Shown here piece by piece: positions 126 to 20,806 of a stretch of 35,851 nt of DNA. The DNA lies in the UHGV virus genome UHGV-0135983. The stretch is one strand, 5' to 3'. Every line of letters starts with the position of its first letter. The stretch's first letter is position 1. The notes beneath the pieces were generated by a model. It searched no databases and had not been told where the DNA came from. It was given only the letters and a program-made list of their open reading frames with translations. This DNA comes from a virus. The translations under genes and the position numbers were made by a program.

Positions 126-378
126 ATTTCACCACATCACGATAAACAGTACGGTAAATCACTTTGGCTTCAGCATTCGCCGTCGCCGCCTTCTGCTCGC
201 CTTCTGCTACCGCTTTTTCCTGTTTTGGCAGTCTGGCTTTAGCCTGGCTGTTCACTTGCTCAGAATGCGCGTACCAGCCTTTCAGATACCCCGCCCAGAA
301 AATACCAGCGGCCACCGCCAGCACTCCCCCAACGATCATCATTTTGGTTTTGCCGTTCACTCGTACAGCCCCCAGCAC
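1..378 (-). CDS. Rz: i-spanin (Rz-like)
   Basis: It has an N-terminal TM segment (MMIVGGVLAVAAGIFWAGYL) followed by a charged coiled-coil, and it directly follows the endolysin. The start is GTG at 378 or ATGATG at 342. Confidence 0.7.
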   Translation of the reverse strand: MLGAVRVNGKTKMMIVGGVLAVAAGIFWAGYLKGWYAHSEQVNSQAKARLPKQEKAVAEGEQKAATANAEAKVIYRTVYRDVVKYVNDPNRTVCKFDSDAVQLRQRAIDAANAIPGFDEPAVPAK

Positions 379-893
379 GTTAGCGCACTTTCCTGCTCCC
401 GGCGGTCAACCTGCCCGTAACAGCCGTTTTTCTGTCCTTTGGTCAGTCGGCAATCCCGTCCACCATCGAAAACCCAGCGCCGGATCTCCGCGCACGCCCC
501 TTTGCGGTCGCCGGCATTGAGTTTGCGGTAGAACGTCGAGGGGAAGCATTTACCCGGACCGATGTTGTAGGGGCAGAAGCTGGCGATCCCGACCTTCTGC
601 GGCGGCGTCAGCGGAACGTGCACATTCTTTTCAACCCATGCCAGCGCCTTATCGCGCTCGATGGCGTTAACTTTCTTGCACTGAGCCTCGGTTGCTCTTT
701 GACCCTTAATGACACGCTTGCCATCTATAACGGTTACTCCGTGGCACAACGACCACACACCGCCGGGGTCAACAACGGCCACCAGCGCGTTACCTTCTTT
801 TTCGCTGATAAACTGATCGAACAGCACCGGCGCAGATGCACCGGCGGCCAGAAGCGCCAACATTGCGGCGCTGAACTTAGCTTTGTTGCTCAT
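357..893 (-). CDS. SAR endolysin (phage 21 R-like lysozyme)
   Basis: The ATG at 893 gives [25 protein letters not shown], a Gly/Ala-rich signal-anchor-release segment. It is followed by E-x8-D-x5-S in [16 protein letters not shown], matching the E-8-D-5-T catalytic pattern. It overlaps the holin 3' end. Confidence 0.88.
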
Positions 894-1107
894 AGTCCTG
901 TGCCTTCCGCCGGTCGTCTTTAATTTTGAAATACAGATTAGTGAGGTAGGTAAGCAACCCGAAAACAATACTTGCCAGAACGCCTATAGCCGCCCACTGG
1001 CTGGGGCTTACCTTGTCGAGAAGTTGCAGCAGCCAGAAGCTGCCGCTTACTGTGGATGTGATGTACGACGTTCCCGCCGCCACATCCGGTAGATTCTTCA
1101 TTCGCAT
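877..1107 (-). CDS. Pinholin (S21-like class II holin) with dual-start motif
   Basis: [44 protein letters not shown] closely resembles my recollection of the S21 sequence. MRMK provides two Met starts separated by Arg, the holin/antiholin arrangement. Confidence 0.85.
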
Positions 1108-1153
1108 GCCTTACCCCTCGGGGGTTCACTGTGTAGTGAAGCGAGGGTAAGGC
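1108..1153 (-). promoter_or_regulatory. 18-bp interrupted hairpin (6+6+6 bp) whose 3' arm covers the holin SD and abuts the ATG
   Basis: Pairings are 1108-1113/1148-1153, 1115-1120/1142-1147 and 1125-1130/1135-1140, with loop GTGT. All were checked base by base. Confidence 0.5.
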
Positions 1154-1177
1154 GTTAACCAGGTCGGAATCCTGACT
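1144..1177 (-). promoter_or_regulatory. Late-promoter candidate e (dyad + N12 + TACCCT) upstream of the lysis cassette
   Basis: Minus strand reads AGTCAGGATTCCGACC-N12-TACCCT, ending 37 nt upstream of the holin ATG. Confidence 0.5.
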
Positions 1178-1183
1178 AAATAT

Positions 1184-3304
1184 TTAAGCGTTGAAACCAC
1201 CGACTCGAACTTTTAGCGTAGAGAGGTCAACATTAGCAGTTATGTTTAATACACCACTCCCCGCTGAAATAGAGAATAAGCGCCGTCCGCCTGACGTTCC
1301 GCCCCCCGCCGGTGGAGTGGTATCGAGTTCACCTGTGATCGATATTGAAATGGTACCCTCACGGTTAGCAACGAGTAGCTCTAAACATTCAGCCCAGGTG
1401 AATTGTGCTGACGACCATGCGTCAATAAAAATACGCTGAGTAGTTCGGTTTGGAATTGTGATGGATTTCACTTCCCCTGTATTTACCAGCCCCTGAAAAC
1501 GGGTTCCGTAATCTATCCAGCTGATACTGTACCCTGGCGACCCCGTTGTGGGATTTTGAGATGTATACCAGGTCTGAGTCCGCACTCCTGTATGACTGAT
1601 TGACTGGAGAGGTCGAGCAAACTGATCGCGGTGGATGTATGCATTCGCCCGTATACCATTACTTTGCAGATCTATATCTGCTGTTCGGGGGTTAGGATAT
1701 AAACCAGATCCCCCCACATCAAACATCGCATAATGATTTGCTACGGCGGGTATCCAGCCATTTCTGTCGAGGTTCCTGAAAAAATCTTCAAAGGCAAGCC
1801 AGTACGATTGCTGATGCCCAAACAAATTGGGGTGAACAGTCTGTATTTCCGGCGTCCGATTGAATAATGCCGTTTCGCCATATTTAGCTACAGCATCAAA
1901 CCAGTATTTTTCAACATCAATCAGCACACAGCCCATTTCTACCGCGATTTGCCTGATGGCATCGTTTCCACGCAGGAAGCGAACACCTGCCTGTATGTTT
2001 ACACCATTCCATTCAAACGTGACGTTTGACTCTGCCGCTGAAGGGATAATGTCCTCATCGGAAACAGGAAGTGGAGAAAATGATGGCCACACCTGATTAA
2101 CAGACGGCGGCATGCTCCAGCTGTACTCAGCTATATTTGGATGCGGTGTGGTTGTCAAAACAACATCACCGCCAGCCTCCCTGACTAAATTAATCGCGGC
2201 TCTAAGACGCTGCTTAAATCCATTTTCATTGAACGTTTGCCCGGCATTATAGTTTGCCGTTGGGAAATCATTCATACCATAGACAAAGAGCGCGATATCA
2301 GGATATACACCTTCTGCGACGACGCCAGACCACTGATTTACAATGAAGTTATTTATCGACGAACCATTAGCCCCCCTGTTTTCGAAAGTAAGAGGATAAA
2401 TTCCTTGTTTGTTAAGAGTTTTATTTAAGTATTCGAAAAACTTAGCGATAGGGGCTTGCGTTGCAGGATCTGGAAGTGTTGCACCCACTTGCACTGAACT
2501 ACCGAAACCGTAAGCTCTGAACAAATCCTGATAGCCGGTAACGCCATGCCGATAAGCTGTTAATTTATTAATAAACTTTGGAAACAGAGCCTGTGATGAG
2601 CCAGACGCAGCACGAATAGATGCCTCTACCGTTCTTCCTGTTTCAGTAGCAACTAAGCCAGCACCGTCCTTCGAAGCCAGCTTAATAGCCAGATCTGCAG
2701 TTTGAGTCTGTCCGGCGATCGGTACCGGGTTTCCCTGGTCATTAAATCCCAGAAGCATATTTGAACGCGGAGCCACCGGATAAAGCATGCCTACCTGATT
2801 TTCAGGAACGCGTAACGTACGGGAAAAGTTTACCTGTTCAGTTTGGATAACGTATTTTTTTGTAGCGGCGTCCTGATTATCAACAGGGTCCAGTAAATTG
2901 CTAATTCTGTATCCCTGAGCATTAAACGGCCCACCGGACAGCGGGCGAGTTATTGCCAGTCCGAGTTCGAGGAATGCCCGTTGGATAGCCATCCAGATAC
3001 GGTCAAAGTCCTTATTAATAGTATCCGCCAGTAAGTCCCCGTTATCCTGATAATCCGTTAACCGGAACGTCGGAACAACACGCTGTAACATAACGACAGC
3101 GCCATTCGCCGGCGGCGTCAGAAAGGAGATATCACCACCATCTTTATTTCCAACCCCCGCGACGGAATACCCACTGGTAACAATATTTCCGTTTATGCTT
3201 ACCTGCAGATCGCTGGCACTAATGATATAGAACTGGTACGTAAAAACGGTTGTCAGGCCGTTAGCCGTATAGATGTTATAGGGTATCTGGTTCGGTACCG
3301 ACAT
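1184..3304 (-). CDS. Tail fibre/tailspike: T7 gp17-like N-terminal adaptor plus SGNH/GDSL-type esterase domain
   Basis: The ATG at 3304 follows a GGAG SD. The N-terminus MSVPNQIPYNIYTANGLTTVFTYQF...DNQDAATKKYV is typical of podovirus fibre adaptors. SGNH-like blocks are present: GFGSS, YGMNDF and VHPN. Confidence 0.8.
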   Translation of the reverse strand: MSVPNQIPYNIYTANGLTTVFTYQFYIISASDLQVSINGNIVTSGYSVAGVGNKDGGDISFLTPPANGAVVMLQRVVPTFRLTDYQDNGDLLADTINKDFDRIWMAIQRAFLELGLAITRPLSGGPFNAQGYRISNLLDPVDNQDAATKKYVIQTEQVNFSRTLRVPENQVGMLYPVAPRSNMLLGFNDQGNPVPIAGQTQTADLAIKLASKDGAGLVATETGRTVEASIRAASGSSQALFPKFINKLTAYRHGVTGYQDLFRAYGFGSSVQVGATLPDPATQAPIAKFFEYLNKTLNKQGIYPLTFENRGANGSSINNFIVNQWSGVVAEGVYPDIALFVYGMNDFPTANYNAGQTFNENGFKQRLRAAINLVREAGGDVVLTTTPHPNIAEYSWSMPPSVNQVWPSFSPLPVSDEDIIPSAAESNVTFEWNGVNIQAGVRFLRGNDAIRQIAVEMGCVLIDVEKYWFDAVAKYGETALFNRTPEIQTVHPNLFGHQQSYWLAFEDFFRNLDRNGWIPAVANHYAMFDVGGSGLYPNPRTADIDLQSNGIRANAYIHRDQFARPLQSISHTGVRTQTWYTSQNPTTGSPGYSISWIDYGTRFQGLVNTGEVKSITIPNRTTQRIFIDAWSSAQFTWAECLELLVANREGTISISITGELDTTPPAGGGTSGGRRLFSISAGSGVLNITANVDLSTLKVRVGGFNA

Positions 3305-3321
3305 ATGGGGAACTCCGGCGG

Positions 3322-4932
3322 CTAATAATCTACGGCGACCATGTGATCGCCATCGTTTGGTTGCCAATGTTCCCGCGCCTGTGCGGTCGGAATCCCGACC
3401 AATTTACCTATACGTACCGGAGTTGAGCTGATAGCACCGGAGCCGGAGTCGATAAAGTCATCGGGCTGATTAGTCAGCGCCGGGTTAAAGTCTCGCATCT
3501 GGTCGTACATTGGGCCGTCGAGCACGTCGGTGTGCGCCCAAAGGAACCGCGACGACAGCGGCGCTTCGAAGGCATCGAGGATGCGTTTCTGTTTATTGGT
3601 CACGCTGAATTCTTCCCGGACGCCGCAACCTGTACCCTTCAACGCCTGAATCAGCAATTTGCCGGCGAAGCTGCCCGGGCCGTTCACCTCGACGCAAATC
3701 AGGGGGATCTGATACTTCAACACCAGCTCTTTAATCTGCATCACCTGACCGCCGGTGATTTTGTCGTTGTCGTCAAATTCTGCCAGTTCGCCCGTAAGCC
3801 CCTGGCAAACATGCCAGTACAGATGCCCGCGCGCGTCGGTGAAAATCAGAGAGAACGCCGAGGCGTCGGCCTTAACTTTGCCGGTGGCCACATCCCACCA
3901 GGCGACAGCACCAACAATTTGCGTCTGGCCAAGCCACATCGAACAGGAGCGGTTCGCGTATCGGATTTCAGGCTGAACGTTGTATTCTCGGATACGGTCA
4001 GGATCAAGACGAACCTCGCCAACCGGTTTACTGTGCAGCTGGTACTGACTGTCCCATTCGTTAATTGTGCGAGTCTCGCGGCGGCGCTTTGTCATTTCCT
4101 CCGGAGTGAATCTTTCCGGCCATTCACAATCGGCGTAACAGTCAACCGTGGTACCGGGAGCCTCGGCAAACTCGATACCATCATCGTTAAGACGATAATC
4201 AACACCTTCAACGAGCAGTCGCGCGCCAATGTGAATACCGACGAAAACATATTCAGGCCGGAACGGTAACGAGTAACGGCTAGCGGTAGCCTGTTTTTCC
4301 TCGATGCGAAATTCTTTGCCGAATAGTTTGATGGTCAGACAGTCGGCGCCCATAGATTCAACCTCATCGTAAAGGCTATCGTGGGTATGCGGCGTGCCGA
4401 TAAACAGCTTTCGCCCGCCGGGGACAAGAATGTGTGTCTGTTCACCCAGACGATAACGCAGCTTTTCCCGCGCCTCCGGCGTCTGGATATTCCGGGGCAC
4501 TTCTACGTCATCGTTCTGACATTCATCGGCACGGGCCGAGGTGACGTTAGAGAGGATCCCCTTTGCGTACATGCTGCCGTTACGCATATCCAGCGAGCCG
4601 TTAACCCACCATTGCTCAACGGTTCCCTGTCCGTCGGGTAGCATACCTTTGGTCAGCGGATGATTGCGTAAAACGTTCTGCGTATCGCGGCTGGTTTTGT
4701 ACGCGGTGCCGTCAGCTTCAGACTGGTGAAGAATGCGGTACTGGCGGTTCTGGTAATATCGCCATGCGTTATACACCGCCAGAATGGTGGATTTTCCGAA
4801 GCCACGGAAACAGCGAAGCACCGCGAGATCCCCGCGGTGTTCCAGCCAGTGGCAGGCTCGATAATGGCAGTCGGGAACCTCCCACCCCATCCGCTCCGCC
4901 CATATGATGAAAAAGGCGACGAATGAAATCAT
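3322..4932 (-). CDS. Terminase large subunit
   Basis: Walker A-like motif CFRGFGKST is present. Size and position (after the small subunit, with an ATGA overlap at 4929-4932) fit. The C-terminal half looks nuclease-like. Confidence 0.85.
   Translation of the reverse strand: MISFVAFFIIWAERMGWEVPDCHYRACHWLEHRGDLAVLRCFRGFGKSTILAVYNAWRYYQNRQYRILHQSEADGTAYKTSRDTQNVLRNHPLTKGMLPDGQGTVEQWWVNGSLDMRNGSMYAKGILSNVTSARADECQNDDVEVPRNIQTPEAREKLRYRLGEQTHILVPGGRKLFIGTPHTHDSLYDEVESMGADCLTIKLFGKEFRIEEKQATASRYSLPFRPEYVFVGIHIGARLLVEGVDYRLNDDGIEFAEAPGTTVDCYADCEWPERFTPEEMTKRRRETRTINEWDSQYQLHSKPVGEVRLDPDRIREYNVQPEIRYANRSCSMWLGQTQIVGAVAWWDVATGKVKADASAFSLIFTDARGHLYWHVCQGLTGELAEFDDNDKITGGQVMQIKELVLKYQIPLICVEVNGPGSFAGKLLIQALKGTGCGVREEFSVTNKQKRILDAFEAPLSSRFLWAHTDVLDGPMYDQMRDFNPALTNQPDDFIDSGSGAISSTPVRIGKLVGIPTAQAREHWQPNDGDHMVAVDY
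3367..3400 (-). promoter_or_regulatory. Late-promoter candidate d, inside the terminase 3' coding region, upstream of the tail fibre
   Basis: Minus strand reads GGTCGGGATTCCGACC-N12-GAACAT, ending 63 nt upstream of the fibre ATG. Confidence 0.45.
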
Positions 4933-5270
4933 TTTTTCCGCTGTTGTATGCGTTCGATAACTTCCTGTGCTGCACGTTCAGCGGCAGATACCTGTTGGCC
5001 CAGGCGGAATGCTTCATCGTCCGGATCCTCGCCGGGTTTAGGCGTTCCCCCGCGCGTATGCATGCCAATCAGCGAATGGACTTTTACCAGCAGGGTTAGC
5101 GATGCGGCCGCATTCTTCTTATGCCAGTACCGATCGCCGCGTTCCTGTTTGGTGTGCTTTGTGACTTCCTTCCCTGCCCCCGGCCAGTTATCCGGATCGG
5201 CTTCTTCAAGAACTACATCGGTGAGCTTATCGCTAAGAGCGGTCAGGCGGGTTTTGTAATCTGAATGCAT
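4929..5270 (-). CDS. Putative terminase small subunit
   Basis: This is a 113-aa charged protein translationally coupled to the large terminase. The assignment rests on position only. Confidence 0.5.
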   Translation of the reverse strand: MHSDYKTRLTALSDKLTDVVLEEADPDNWPGAGKEVTKHTKQERGDRYWHKKNAAASLTLLVKVHSLIGMHTRGGTPKPGEDPDDEAFRLGQQVSAAERAAQEVIERIQQRKK

Positions 5271-5299
5271 AAAAAAGCCCCGTGGTTATCCATAGGGCT
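5271..5299 (-). terminator. Intrinsic terminator-like hairpin plus U6 immediately upstream of the small-terminase ATG
   Basis: Minus-strand RNA is AGCCCU (5299-5294), a 12-nt loop, GGGGCU (5281-5276), then UUUUU and AUG. The stem has 5 Watson-Crick pairs plus one G.U pair. Confidence 0.45.
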
Positions 5300-5333
5300 A
5301 TAATGTGCCGGGCTAGAGGTCGGAATCCTGACT
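5300..5333 (-). promoter_or_regulatory. Late-promoter candidate c upstream of the terminase genes
   Basis: Minus strand reads AGTCAGGATTCCGACC-N12-CATTAT, ending 30 nt upstream of the ATG at 5270. Confidence 0.5.
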
Positions 5334-5404
5334 ATTGCATATGCAGCGATGTACGTATAAAACTAGCCGACATTAATATAATCATTTTCATTCAGAGGCT
5401 CCCT

Positions 5405-5842
5405 GTGAAAACTTTATTCCCCTTAATACTGTTTATCGTAACTTCTACCGTTTGCGCCAAAGAAGTTAAATATGACTTTCCTCCAGATGGGGAAATGGCA
5501 AAATCACTCAAACCAGAAATTGTTGGCGTGGCTAATTATGAAATGGTCAATAGAAGCGTGCGCTTAAAAGCTTTAGATGTTGGTGAAAAAAATGTTTCTC
5601 TCCTGGTAGTCATAGGTGCTACCGACACCAGAAAACCCGTTACTCAAGCTAACATCCCTGACAAACAATCAATCTCATTAACTAAACAGCAAATTGTGAA
5701 CAAATATTGTGCACCATTCGGGTATGGCAATTGGTACTTTGATGCCTTCAAACAGCGGGGTGTAAAACTGCACTATTACTTTTACTCGGCAGTAGACACC
5801 CCGTTATTTACATTCACGGTAAATAAATCTGATTGCGATTAA
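5405..5842 (+). CDS. Secreted (periplasmic) moron protein of unknown function
   Basis: GTG at 5405 lies 6 nt after GAGG. The signal peptide is VKTLFPLILFIVTSTVCA|KE, and there are two Cys in the mature part. The gene is AT-rich, opposite in orientation to all neighbours, and its stop overlaps the convergent gene. A possible promoter is TTGCAT (5335) with TATAAA (5356). Confidence 0.6.
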   Translation: MKTLFPLILFIVTSTVCAKEVKYDFPPDGEMAKSLKPEIVGVANYEMVNRSVRLKALDVGEKNVSLLVVIGATDTRKPVTQANIPDKQSISLTKQQIVNKYCAPFGYGNWYFDAFKQRGVKLHYYFYSAVDTPLFTFTVNKSDCD

Positions 5843-15008: not shown

Positions 15009-15920
15009 TTATGCTACGAAATCGATGGCGACTACTTTGTTTTCCGCTGCGCGGCCTGCACCATAGGACGCATCGACGGAAATCTGAATGGTGTTGTTTT
15101 TATCGCGGCGCGGGCCGATATCGACGTTGTACTCTTCGCCGGTACCAAAATGCACAGCAGATTTACACCAGGCTGCGGCGGTTTTGGTGGTTACAGCGGG
15201 ATCACCTGCTGAAGCAGAATCCAGTTTTTCATACGCCAGCCACTTAAAGCCCAGCCAGTTACCAGACACTGCGCCTTCCTGCAGCATTTTCACTGCCATA
15301 AAGTCGGCGCTGGTCAGCGTGGTATCGCTGAGGATTTGGGTCAGCATGTCGGCGTTGTAGGTGATATACAGCTCTTCACCGTTCTGCTCGTCACACTCGT
15401 TACGGCGGAACATGGCTTTCGCGGCGATCAGCTTCGCTTTGGTCATCCCTGTACCGCCAGCAACGATTTTCTGCGATGCAGGCAAGGCAACTGGAGCGTA
15501 CGCGCCAGTATTGGAGGTTTTACGCAGAACGGTATCGAGCAGCGCGCGATAAATAACATCGTCTTTTTTGCGGTTGGATGCGGCCAGCGTCAGCTGCAAA
15601 TATGGCCCCTGCGGGTCAGCCAGCAGTTTGCGCAGGTCGCGCTTTTCCACTGGCACGAATACGCCATAGTCAGCCATCAGCGCATTACGGGTGCCGGCAT
15701 CAGGCAGATCCCAGACGGTATCACCGAAACGCTCGGTGATCTGGGTCATTTCGATGGTACCCATATCGTTGATGGTGAACGACGCACCGGTAATATTGCC
15801 ACGGTCGTAAACAGCAGCTTGCAGGCGGGAATCCTTCTGCTGTGCGGCAATTTCGAAAGAATCATGGAACTGCTGAACAAACGCAGCGGTGATCATGTTC
15901 TTAGCGGTATCAAATGACAT
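15009..15920 (-). CDS. Major capsid protein
   Basis: The ATG at 15920 follows a GGAG SD and gives MSFDTAKNMITAAF... The protein is 303 aa and lies between the scaffold and tail tubular genes. The longer ORF-track start at 16001 was rejected. Confidence 0.8.
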   Translation of the reverse strand: MSFDTAKNMITAAFVQQFHDSFEIAAQQKDSRLQAAVYDRGNITGASFTINDMGTIEMTQITERFGDTVWDLPDAGTRNALMADYGVFVPVEKRDLRKLLADPQGPYLQLTLAASNRKKDDVIYRALLDTVLRKTSNTGAYAPVALPASQKIVAGGTGMTKAKLIAAKAMFRRNECDEQNGEELYITYNADMLTQILSDTTLTSADFMAVKMLQEGAVSGNWLGFKWLAYEKLDSASAGDPAVTTKTAAAWCKSAVHFGTGEEYNVDIGPRRDKNNTIQISVDASYGAGRAAENKVVAIDFVA

Positions 15921-16056
15921 AACAATCACTCCAGAAAGTATCGCCTGCGGGGTATCGGTTTCCCGGCCCAAATCAGCACAATGCGGTTGGCGCTGGCGCA
16001 TTGCGGGAAAATCAGGTATCCGGCGTCCCCGCCGGGCTGGTTGTGGAGTGATTGTT
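15921..16056 (-). promoter_or_regulatory. Long-range 13-bp perfect anti-SD/SD pairing flanking the capsid 5' leader
   Basis: 16056-16044 (AACAAUCACUCCA) is the exact complement of 15933-15921 (UGGAGUGAUUGUU). The latter contains the capsid SD and abuts the AUG. Confidence 0.5.
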
Positions 16057-16084
16057 AGCGAGGAGAGCGGTCGGAATCCCGACC
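16051..16084 (-). promoter_or_regulatory. Late-promoter candidate b upstream of the capsid gene
   Basis: Minus strand reads GGTCGGGATTCCGACC-N12-AACAAT. Confidence 0.5.
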
Positions 16085-20509: not shown

Positions 20510-20806
20510 TCATTGTGTGTTGCCCTTCTGGTCAGTTTCCCGACCAAAAACAGGGCGGCGGAACGTCCACCACTGCCGATAAAGCACTGTGGGGAGTTTT
20601 TTACGGTCTGAGCTGGTAGCCAGACACCAGAGAGCGATAAGTGCCTCACCGTGACCGTGGCGAGGTTCTGATCCGGATTTCCAACCGAGAACGGCAGATT
20701 TCGAAACGCCAAGTTCATCGGCGATTTGCTGAGTGGTGAGGTTTTTTCGTGTCAGGTCAGTAATGACTCTGAACCAGTCTGTACGGAAGGTGGCGACCAG
20801 CGGCAT
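20510..20806 (-). CDS. Small HTH DNA-binding protein, a candidate late-gene regulator
   Basis: LTTQQIADELGVSKSAVLGW is a sigma-region-4/HTH_23-like helix-turn-helix. This is the last gene before the virion module. Confidence 0.6.
   Translation of the reverse strand: MPLVATFRTDWFRVITDLTRKNLTTQQIADELGVSKSAVLGWKSGSEPRHGHGEALIALWCLATSSDRKKLPTVLYRQWWTFRRPVFGRETDQKGNTQ
20512..20545 (-). promoter_or_regulatory. Late-promoter candidate a
   Basis: Minus strand reads GGTCGGGAAACTGACC-N12-CACAAT. It lies inside the 3' end of the HTH gene, 30 nt upstream of the ATG at 20482. Confidence 0.5.

Follow-up and report, generated by a model that had tools for sequence, protein, structure and literature searches.

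How does a phage keep its holin from being translated on RNA that was begun for other genes? The question is raised by the lysis region of virus genome UHGV-0135983, a stretch of 35,851 nucleotides (nt) to which all positions below refer (the window), where the minus strand carries, in order, the large terminase gene (terL), a tail-fibre/esterase gene, a 76-nt spacer, the gene for a holin of 76 amino acids (aa), a lysozyme gene, and an Rz-like gene. The genes upstream of the holin are co-directional with it, and no credible terminator is found across 3400 to 1108. Because scans for an intrinsic terminator between the tail-fibre gene and the holin leader gave only weak 5-bp stems within coding sequence, tail-fibre transcripts would be expected to run into the holin leader. 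The dose of holin sets the moment of lysis and hence the burst size. Here, we describe a hairpin at the holin start (1108-1153, minus strand) that is predicted to enclose both ribosome-binding sequences of the gene, and we argue that the position at which transcription starts may decide whether that hairpin can form.

A predicted hairpin at the holin start

The first-pass annotation of this DNA, made by a model from the letters alone, had proposed that three 6-bp helices stack into one hairpin over the holin start. All three are present (1108-1113/1148-1153, 1115-1120/1142-1147, and 1125-1130/1135-1140), and minus-strand RNA from 1153 to 1108 folds into a single composite hairpin with a minimum free energy of -22.8 kcal/mol, although the first helix is longer than had been claimed and extends over 9 bp (1108-1116/1145-1153) rather than 6. 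Dinucleotide shuffles of the same segment (n = 200) gave -10.4 ± 2.5 kcal/mol (z = -5.0), none of them being equally stable, and the hairpin is kept when it is folded within 141-nt and 241-nt contexts. Its 5' arm (GCCUUACCCUCG, 1142..1153), an anti-Shine-Dalgarno (anti-SD) strand, is present only in RNA begun upstream of 1153. The inner hairpin UUCACU-ACAC-AGUGAA (1125..1140) forms the cap and holds, within its own 5' arm, the predicted transcription start site (TSS) discussed below. The 3' arm, CGAGGG-G-UAAGGC (1108..1120), is the holin SD region, as the annotation had read it, and constitutes the translation initiation region (TIR) of the gene, its last base standing directly before the AUG at 1107. 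Two SD sequences follow one another in this arm, namely SD1, GAGGGG (1119..1114), for AUG1 and SD2, UAAGG (1113..1109), for AUG3, all on the minus strand. A search against Rfam 15 returned no match at gathering score in the whole window and no relevant match at E ≤ 5 in 900-1400.

To describe the leader as a function of its 5' end, RNAs with varied 5' ends were folded, and the unpaired probability of each SD was computed. RNAs beginning anywhere from 1300 to 1153 form the long hairpin, with SD1 unpaired at 0.17 and SD2 at 0.01. RNAs beginning from 1141 to 1133 form a small stem only, with SD1 unpaired at 0.34 and SD2 at 0.66-0.69, so that the earlier expectation of a closed long RNA and an open short RNA is reproduced in the computed folds. 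The small stem-loop (ACCCC-CGA-GGGGU, 1125..1113, minus strand) forms only without the 5' arm; it hides SD1 and leaves AAGG free. It appears in every fold of RNAs from 1141-1133 and also in the short-leader folds of relatives, including that of YeP4, which with YeP5 and YeP6 belongs to the temperate Yersinia phages that are the nearest isolates (terL about 80% identical). The CCCC run at 1121-1124 is near-invariant in the family even though the long hairpin leaves it unpaired, as an internal loop, a pattern that is understandable only if the small stem has a role.

Judged by its sequence, the 3' arm of the hairpin is a lambda-S-type initiation region. The TIR consensus of the family is GGGGGUAAGRCAUG, the window has GAGGGG-UAAGG-C-AUG, and lambda S has GGGGGUAAGACAUG; in the stem together with the SD, lambda reads CCCCUUAUUGGGGGUAAGACAUGAAGAUG (CCCC-UUAUU-GGGG) and the family CCCC-GCG-GGGGGUAAGGCAUGCGAAUG. 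The likeness to lambda S thus extends over the whole family consensus CCCC-loop-GGGGG-UAAG-R-C-AUG-NNN-AUG (loop and G run in the window, CGA-GGGG), and includes both a basic residue between the two Met codons and a small upstream stem that hides a G-rich SD. In the window, the dual start reads M-R-M-K (AUG-CGA-AUG-AAG, 1107..1096, minus strand, with AUGs at 1107 and 1101), and MRM is kept in most relatives. A similar dual-start arrangement is reported for P22 gene 13 and phage 21 S. In lambda S, the antiholin start Met1 uses GGGGG, to which the upstream stem governs access, and the holin start Met3 uses UAAG (bioRxiv 10.1101/2025.05.14.654169). By the computed folds, the short RNA of the window would be comparable in behavior to lambda S mRNA and the long RNA entirely closed.

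Several differences from lambda S should be kept in view. The holin here is of class II (PF04971), whereas that of lambda is of class I, and the small stem here has a 3-nt loop. In addition, a second, far stronger, and mutually exclusive hairpin can here close both SDs, and no such extra upstream strand is present in the lambda sequence examined. The lambda-like TIR is not general to holins of the phage 21 type, since 933W S belongs to that type and its TIR is different. A stem-loop is also predicted within the holin gene at about 1054-1087, 20-50 nt into the coding sequence, where it recalls the downstream stem-loop of lambda S; its consensus structure in the family is weak (-1.3), and its register varies between sub-families. 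The element predicted in the folds of the window itself spans 1086..1060 and is not conserved in register. The first-pass annotation had recognized neither the lambda-S-type TIR in the 3' arm nor the precedent of T4 gene e considered below.

A recurrent motif and a putative -10 hexamer within the 5' arm

Eight nucleotides upstream of the hairpin lies one copy (AGTCAGGATTCCGACC, 1162..1177, minus strand) of a near-palindromic 16-bp motif, RGTCRGGATTCCGACC, which stands ahead of the genes for the capsid, the small terminase (terS), the tail fibre, and the holin as well as ahead of the first late gene, always on the minus strand. That strand of the window holds four exact or near-exact copies, for a chance expectation of 0.13, plus one degenerate copy. 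Two scans of viral contigs, giving a sample shaped by the two query patterns used, yielded about 190 related loci; in these about 190 related viral contigs, the motif is in each case upstream of late genes. In relatives, it stands directly 3' of terminators and 5' of late genes, and upstream of it the phages have unrelated sequences. A search of the searchable literature for the motif string found unrelated primer sequences only, and a paper on APSE that mentions YeP4 holds nothing on promoters or hairpins. A scan of genome contigs with RGTCRGGATTCCGACC was not used, as among the matches listed nearly all were chance matches in unrelated phyla.

Exactly 12 nt past the holin motif is the hexamer TACCCT (1144..1149, minus strand), which lies inside the 5' arm of the hairpin and which the first-pass annotation had taken for the -10 of a promoter candidate. 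Comparison of the family speaks for that assignment. When the 32 independent contexts downstream of the motif were searched for A at position 2 and T at position 6 of a hexamer (nAnnnT), this pattern was present at the 12-nt offset in 20 of the 32, as against 0-5 at each of the other offsets from 0 to 39 (binomial P = 9e-17). These are the two most conserved bases of the sigma-70 -10 element. The hexamers concerned are CATCAT or CATTAT at terS, TACCCT at the holin, AACAAT at the capsid gene, GAACAT or GAAGAT at the tail fibre, CACACT or CACAAT at the first late gene, and TAAAAT at the YeP4 holin, with several further ones of the same form in singleton contexts. The promoter is visible only through the recurrent motif and not through a scan for sigma-70 sites.

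As the canonical distance from a -10 element to the start is 7 nt, the TSS is predicted at about 1137 (minus strand), an A preceded by C. RNA begun there would lack the outer 5' arm, in agreement with what had been suggested for this promoter. The corresponding columns 24-26 (C, A, C) of alignment A3, introduced below, are at least 90% conserved, leaders without the inner hairpin included. Relative to this start, the motif would occupy about -40..-25 and replace a -35 element, an arrangement that fits an activator-dependent late promoter, and from sequence comparison the motif promoters look like an undescribed family of such promoters.

Two other readings of the motif were tried and rejected: (i) the motif as an RNA hairpin, since the common AGUCAG variant brings uncompensated A.C mismatches and the YeP4 variant pairs poorly; and (ii) a promoter for a phage RNA polymerase, since none is encoded and the 739-aa open reading frame (ORF) is an exonuclease.

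Conservation of the hairpin in relatives

The structure was followed in alignment A3, which comprises 45 distinct holin leaders of related ~35-kb prophages. Under the family structure, 82.7% of its cells pair, compared with 32-48% when the 3' partners are shifted by 1-3 columns, and the 9-bp core pairs in 87-100% of the sequences. Nearly all one-sided changes replace C by U in the 5' arm or A by G in the 3' arm, by which G.U pairs are preserved. Because changes of this kind would give A.C mismatches on the other strand, they point to a strand-specific structure, that is, one of minus-strand RNA. Compensatory change is seen at two inner pairs, in columns 20/48 (GC/AU/GU) and 21/47 (CG/GC), both of which are outside the -10 and the SD.

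Loss of parts of the element is also informative. One sub-family retains a 9-11-bp anti-SD helix and has lost the upper (inner) stem, and one variant retains a hexamer, GACTCT, in a leader whose hairpin has decayed to -7 kcal/mol. Because the hexamer is kept there while the hairpin decays, the comparison suggests that the promoter constraint outweighs that on the hairpin.

The same leader, with motif, hairpin, and MRM dual start, stands before at least two unrelated holin bodies, one of the 76-aa phage 21 type and one of a 109-aa MRMNPQNNW... type; viral contigs that share it include L042, L252, L291, L274, and L206. The YeP4 counterpart, at 1915-1995 of L077/L308, has a third holin body behind the same leader layout in a different sequence. 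The exchange joint between holin bodies seems to lie just after the dual start. Furthermore, Raoultella phage Ro1 (NC_048682, 111710-111878), a lytic member of the Vequintavirinae, has the motif and the hairpin together with the first 33 holin codons, these codons being joined in frame to the start of its annotated tail-fibre gene gp206. The -10 of this copy is mutated to TGCCCT, and the segment appears to be the trace of a recombination event with a prophage of the same family.

The same layout at other late genes and in phage YeP4

Pairing between promoter and initiation region was compared across the window by computing the duplex between the promoter segment (positions 9-28 after the motif) and the TIR of the same gene, and by setting it against 3000 random 20-mers of the window. 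For the holin, this duplex has -24.8 kcal/mol and none of the 3000 random segments is as good; the capsid gene gives -21.5 kcal/mol (again 0/3000), the tail fibre -18.7 kcal/mol (1.8% of random segments as good), and terS -14.1 kcal/mol (3.5%). Mismatched pairs of promoter and TIR within the window reach -2.4 to -12.2 kcal/mol.

That the capsid gene would follow the same logic had been noted in the first-pass annotation, and a perfect 14-bp helix bears this out. In the capsid promoter unit (15920..16084, minus strand; motif 16084..16069, -10 AACAAT 16056..16051), the -10 and discriminator segment UAACAAUCACUCCA (16057..16044) is perfectly complementary to UGGAGUGAUUGUUA (15933..15920), about 110 nt away, which spans the capsid SD through the A of the AUG. 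Relatives with CATTAT as the capsid -10 have a TIR changed to GGAGUGAUAA, by which 12 bp are preserved, and others keep 6-10 contiguous pairs.

The terS unit (5271..5333, minus strand) holds the motif (5333..5318), the -10 CATTAT (5305..5300), a terminator hairpin (5299..5276), a U run, and then, at 5270, the AUG. In all variants, the 5' arm of the terminator begins at position 19, directly after the -10. The hairpin has -10 to -16 kcal/mol in long RNA and 0 to -1.4 kcal/mol in RNA from the predicted TSS, which falls past the first bases of the 5' arm. Because that start is inside the arm, RNA made from this promoter would run past the terminator by which upstream transcription is halted.

At the tail fibre, the motif (GGTCGGGATTCCGACC, 3385..3400, minus strand) is within the 3' end of terL, upstream of the start at 3304, and GAACAT follows after 12 nt. 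In this unit (3304-3400), GGGAAC overlapping the -10 GAACAT is complementary to GUUCCC just past the SD, and relatives with GAGCAT carry GCUUCC, an apparent compensatory change. The degenerate motif copy, GGTCGGGAAACTGACC (20545..20530, minus strand), precedes the first late gene (AUG 20482), with CACAAT after 12 nt (unit 20512..20545). At this site, relatives have the canonical motif with CACACT, and in them the predicted start falls within GGCUCC, a segment that pairs with the SD GGAGCC.

The holin leader of YeP4 repeats the layout in unrelated sequence. Its 101-aa holin is unrelated, with an MKM dual start and an unrelated hairpin sequence, and the order of elements is motif, 12 nt, TAAAAT, then UAAGCACC...GGUGCUUAUG. 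When the RNA begins at position 19 or earlier, its TIR is covered by a 14-bp hairpin of -17.8 kcal/mol; when it begins at position 25, only the CCCC/GGGG stem forms.

A candidate activator

At the junction of early and late genes, the window encodes a 98-aa helix-turn-helix (HTH) protein (20510..20806, minus strand) that matches a PHROG transcription-regulator family. No specific Pfam family could be assigned to it, and among the sequences of solved structures none matches it significantly. Its homologues in the phage collection are confined to YeP4/5/6 and to Acinetobacter phages with the same structural module and terminase type, and the YeP4 homologue stands at the same early/late junction despite an entirely different replication module. 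On this position and distribution, the protein is a candidate activator of the motif promoters.

Proposed mechanism

We propose that the holin leader has two states, set by the position at which transcription starts. As comparison suggests, the motif (1177..1162) and TACCCT (1149..1144) would together form a late promoter without a -35 element, which would be read from about 1137 by host RNA polymerase with a phage factor, probably the 98-aa HTH protein. Read-through RNA from the tail-fibre, terL, and terS genes would contain 1153..1142, and its segment CCUUACCCUCG would pair with both SDs as far as the base preceding AUG1; with the inner stem as its cap, the resulting hairpin has a computed stability of about -23 kcal/mol and would be expected to block ribosomes. 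Promoter-initiated RNA would be free of the 5' arm and would form only the CCCC/GGGG stem, the equivalent of the upstream (sdi) stem of lambda S, which in the computed fold buries the SD of Met1, presumably the start of the antiholin, while UAAGG stays accessible for Met3, the start of the holin, a partition between Met1 and Met3 that is read across from lambda. The net effect would be that holin synthesis is set solely by its own activator-dependent, deliberately weak promoter, and that the holin is insulated both from heavy co-directional late transcription and from stray read-through in the lysogen. The -10/discriminator DNA would serve in addition as the anti-TIR strand in front of the capsid and tail-fibre genes and, in relatives, of the first late gene, and as the 5' strand of the terminator at terS.

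On the comparative and folding evidence, we hold start-site-dependent opening of the holin leader to be the probable mechanism, with moderate confidence. Several points weigh against it, as follows: (i) apart from the two inner pairs, both arms of the core are near-invariant, and double-sided covariation in the 9-bp core is scarce, its modest extent following from that very invariance; (ii) a sigma-70 consensus scan of 800-1500 gave no promoter, and TACCCT is a poor -10; (iii) the start at about 1137 is predicted from promoter geometry alone; (iv) at the first late gene of the window, the duplex of own promoter and own TIR has only -4.7 kcal/mol, which 60% of random segments match, and is not significant; (v) against Pfam, the 98-aa protein matches generic HTH families only; and (vi) the upstream promoters share the motif, and all are therefore expected to act in the same late period, which weakens a T4-like timing of early-closed and late-open RNA. 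Because the upstream transcripts would themselves be late, insulation or dose-setting is a better label than an early/late switch. This also modifies an earlier suggestion that the hairpin adds a second layer of lysis-timing control to a dual-start holin: the dual start MRMK stands, but a lysis-specific timer does not, and a general insulation device at all late promoters takes its place.

A wider form of the proposal, to which we give somewhat less than an even chance, is a genome-wide grammar, with the holin hairpin as one instance, of HTH-activated promoters in which the 16-bp motif takes the place of the -35 element and the -10/discriminator is in each case also an anti-SD or anti-terminator strand. 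Under such a grammar, no late protein, the holin among them, could arise from read-through RNA, and all would depend on starts that require the activator. As speculation, half-site variants of the motif (AGTCAG versus GGTCGG) might bring the capsid and tail-fibre genes into expression before those for packaging and lysis. Class-specific motif variants as such (position 5 being G at capsid and tail-fibre genes, A at terS and holin) were set aside, as they amount to a tendency only, in a sample biased by the two queries, and remain speculation.

Alternative explanations

The alternative that survives best, although we think it unlikely, is a constitutive throttle, by which all holin mRNAs would start upstream of 1153 and always carry the full hairpin. 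The motif would then be no promoter, or transcription would start just past it, and the hairpin would be an enlarged element of the lambda sdi type, which a helicase, a nuclease, an RNA-binding activator of the Mu Com kind, or some other factor acting in trans might open. Conservation of the hairpin and of the lambda-like TIR would be expected under such a throttle too, and the absence of a sigma-70 call at the holin leader, together with a TSS at about 1137 that is predicted only, speaks in its favor. On the other hand, with both SDs paired in a hairpin of -23 to -31 kcal/mol (SD2 unpaired at 0.01), an essential lysis gene would be nearly silenced, and the tail-fibre stop codon (1184) is too distant for terminating ribosomes to open the hairpin. 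A throttle also leaves the fixed-spacing nAnnnT hexamer unexplained and, applied to terS, would put a strong terminator directly between promoter and gene.

A processing site for RNase III, like the R sites of T7, appears quite improbable. A cut would free the holin TIR, and the tail-fibre mRNA would keep a hairpin at its 3' end as protection; a 12-bp lower stem, an asymmetric internal loop, and a 6-bp upper stem would make up the substrate. This composite shape of stem, internal loop, and stem resembles the T7 R sites, which follow many T7 promoters. The comparison is helped by the structural module of the phage, which is T7-like, and, as with the promoter/RNase III site pairs of T7, composite intergenic hairpins come just downstream of phage promoters and hairpins stand between late genes; the present case differs in that there is no phage RNA polymerase here and the promoter overlaps the hairpin instead of standing 5' of it. 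The sub-family that has only a 9-11-bp anti-SD helix argues against processing, such a helix being short for RNase III, and the coincidence of the 5' arm with the -10/+1 region at several genes would go unexplained.

We regard as very improbable that the complementarity is a coincidence, the 5' arm being kept as promoter and the 3' arm as TIR with no hairpin under selection. The arms are indeed near-invariant, and most pairs are without double-sided change. However, the 13-nt complementarity is far above chance (z = -5; 0/3000 random 20-mers), and the compensatory changes at columns 20/48 and 21/47 fall where neither -10 nor SD would constrain them. TACCCT is moreover atypical beside its sister promoters (CATCAT, AACAAT, GAACAT) and is the complement of GGGUA, and both YeP4 and the capsid gene repeat the layout with different sequences.

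Least credible of all is an intrinsic terminator of the tail-fibre gene, or an element acting as DNA (an operator or a cruciform), since the GC-rich hairpin, though it lies 30 nt past a stop codon, has no U tract on its 3' side (AUGCGAAUG / AUGCGAAUGAAG comes next instead) and is not among the calls of the terminator scan, the arms are 28 bp apart, which is atypical of an operator, and the other strand would have A.C mismatches in place of its many G.U pairs, which points to a strand-specific RNA structure.

Relation to known systems

Start-site-dependent opening has a precedent in phage T4. For T4 genes e, soc, 49, and I-TevI, long transcripts sequester the ribosome-binding site and yield little translation, and late promoters within the DNA of the hairpin's 5' strand give rise to translatable RNAs that are without that strand (PMC3014915, citing McPheeters et al. 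1986). The likeness to gene e is close, at least by computation: the holin SDs lie in a stable helix in the long RNA, and a -10-like hexamer is inside the upstream strand. There as here, the device would shield a lysis gene from untimely expression. Control of the holin appears to be of the same kind as that of T4 gene e, and the late-promoter system around it appears undescribed.

Several differences separate the two cases. The T4 promoter is gp55-dependent (TATAAATA), whereas here a sigma-70-like -10 would act with a new 16-bp upstream motif. In T4, early and middle RNA is discriminated from late RNA, whereas here the upstream transcripts would be late themselves. Gene e encodes an endolysin and the gene here a holin, the device here is superposed on a lambda-like dual start, and it is found at essentially every late promoter, in one version with the promoter inside a terminator. 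Lastly, the T4 arrangement has been shown experimentally, whereas the present one is proposed from sequence comparison and folding. With rho-independent terminators, the holin hairpin shares a GC-rich stem-loop after a gene, and the terS hairpin with its U run is truly terminator-like; the holin hairpin differs in having no U tract and in abutting a start codon.

Genome context

The genome is a hybrid in which a T7-like virion module (portal, capsid, tail tube, internal virion proteins, and terminase) is joined to a lambdoid immunity, replication, and nin region and to an integrase. The early region contains Cro, a repressor, O/P-like replication genes, and NinB, and no phage RNA polymerase gene was found among the window proteins by Pfam and PHROG matches. 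A close prophage is present in one of 5426 complete E. coli genomes, where it adjoins yecA.

In the lysis region, terL (4932..3322) is followed by the tail-fibre/esterase gene (1184..3304), whose product has the Pfam T7 tail-fibre N-terminal domain and a GDSL lipase domain. The holin (877..1107) is of class II and belongs to the phage 21 S family (PF04971, E = 2.5e-30; 104.7 bits for a cut-off of 26 in the Pfam profile search). The lysozyme gene (357..893; PF00959, E = 2.5e-21) overlaps the 3' end of the holin gene with its 5' end, and its product, which has an Ala/Gly-rich and hydrophobic N-terminus, is by sequence a putative endolysin of the signal-anchor-release (SAR) type. All four genes are on the minus strand. 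On the opposite (plus) strand, a 186-aa ORF (5282-5842) lies between the gene for an internal virion protein and the terS promoter, with no Pfam match and no PHROG match; it is probably a moron, because the sequence of relatives differs at that place.

Biological significance

If the proposed mechanism is true, the window would provide a temperate-phage case of the T4 gene e device in which the controlled gene is a holin and the device is combined with a lambda-type dual start. Three dials would then act on one 70-nt leader, namely promoter strength, start-dependent opening, and the partition between holin and antiholin. The late-promoter motif is family-wide in a widespread group of enterobacterial prophages of about 35 kb, in which it provides a handle for annotation, marking five late transcription units per genome. 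The leader layout stands before at least three unrelated holin bodies and the regulatory leader travels as one unit, which would explain how these phages can exchange tail-fibre and holin cassettes without upsetting the control of lysis.

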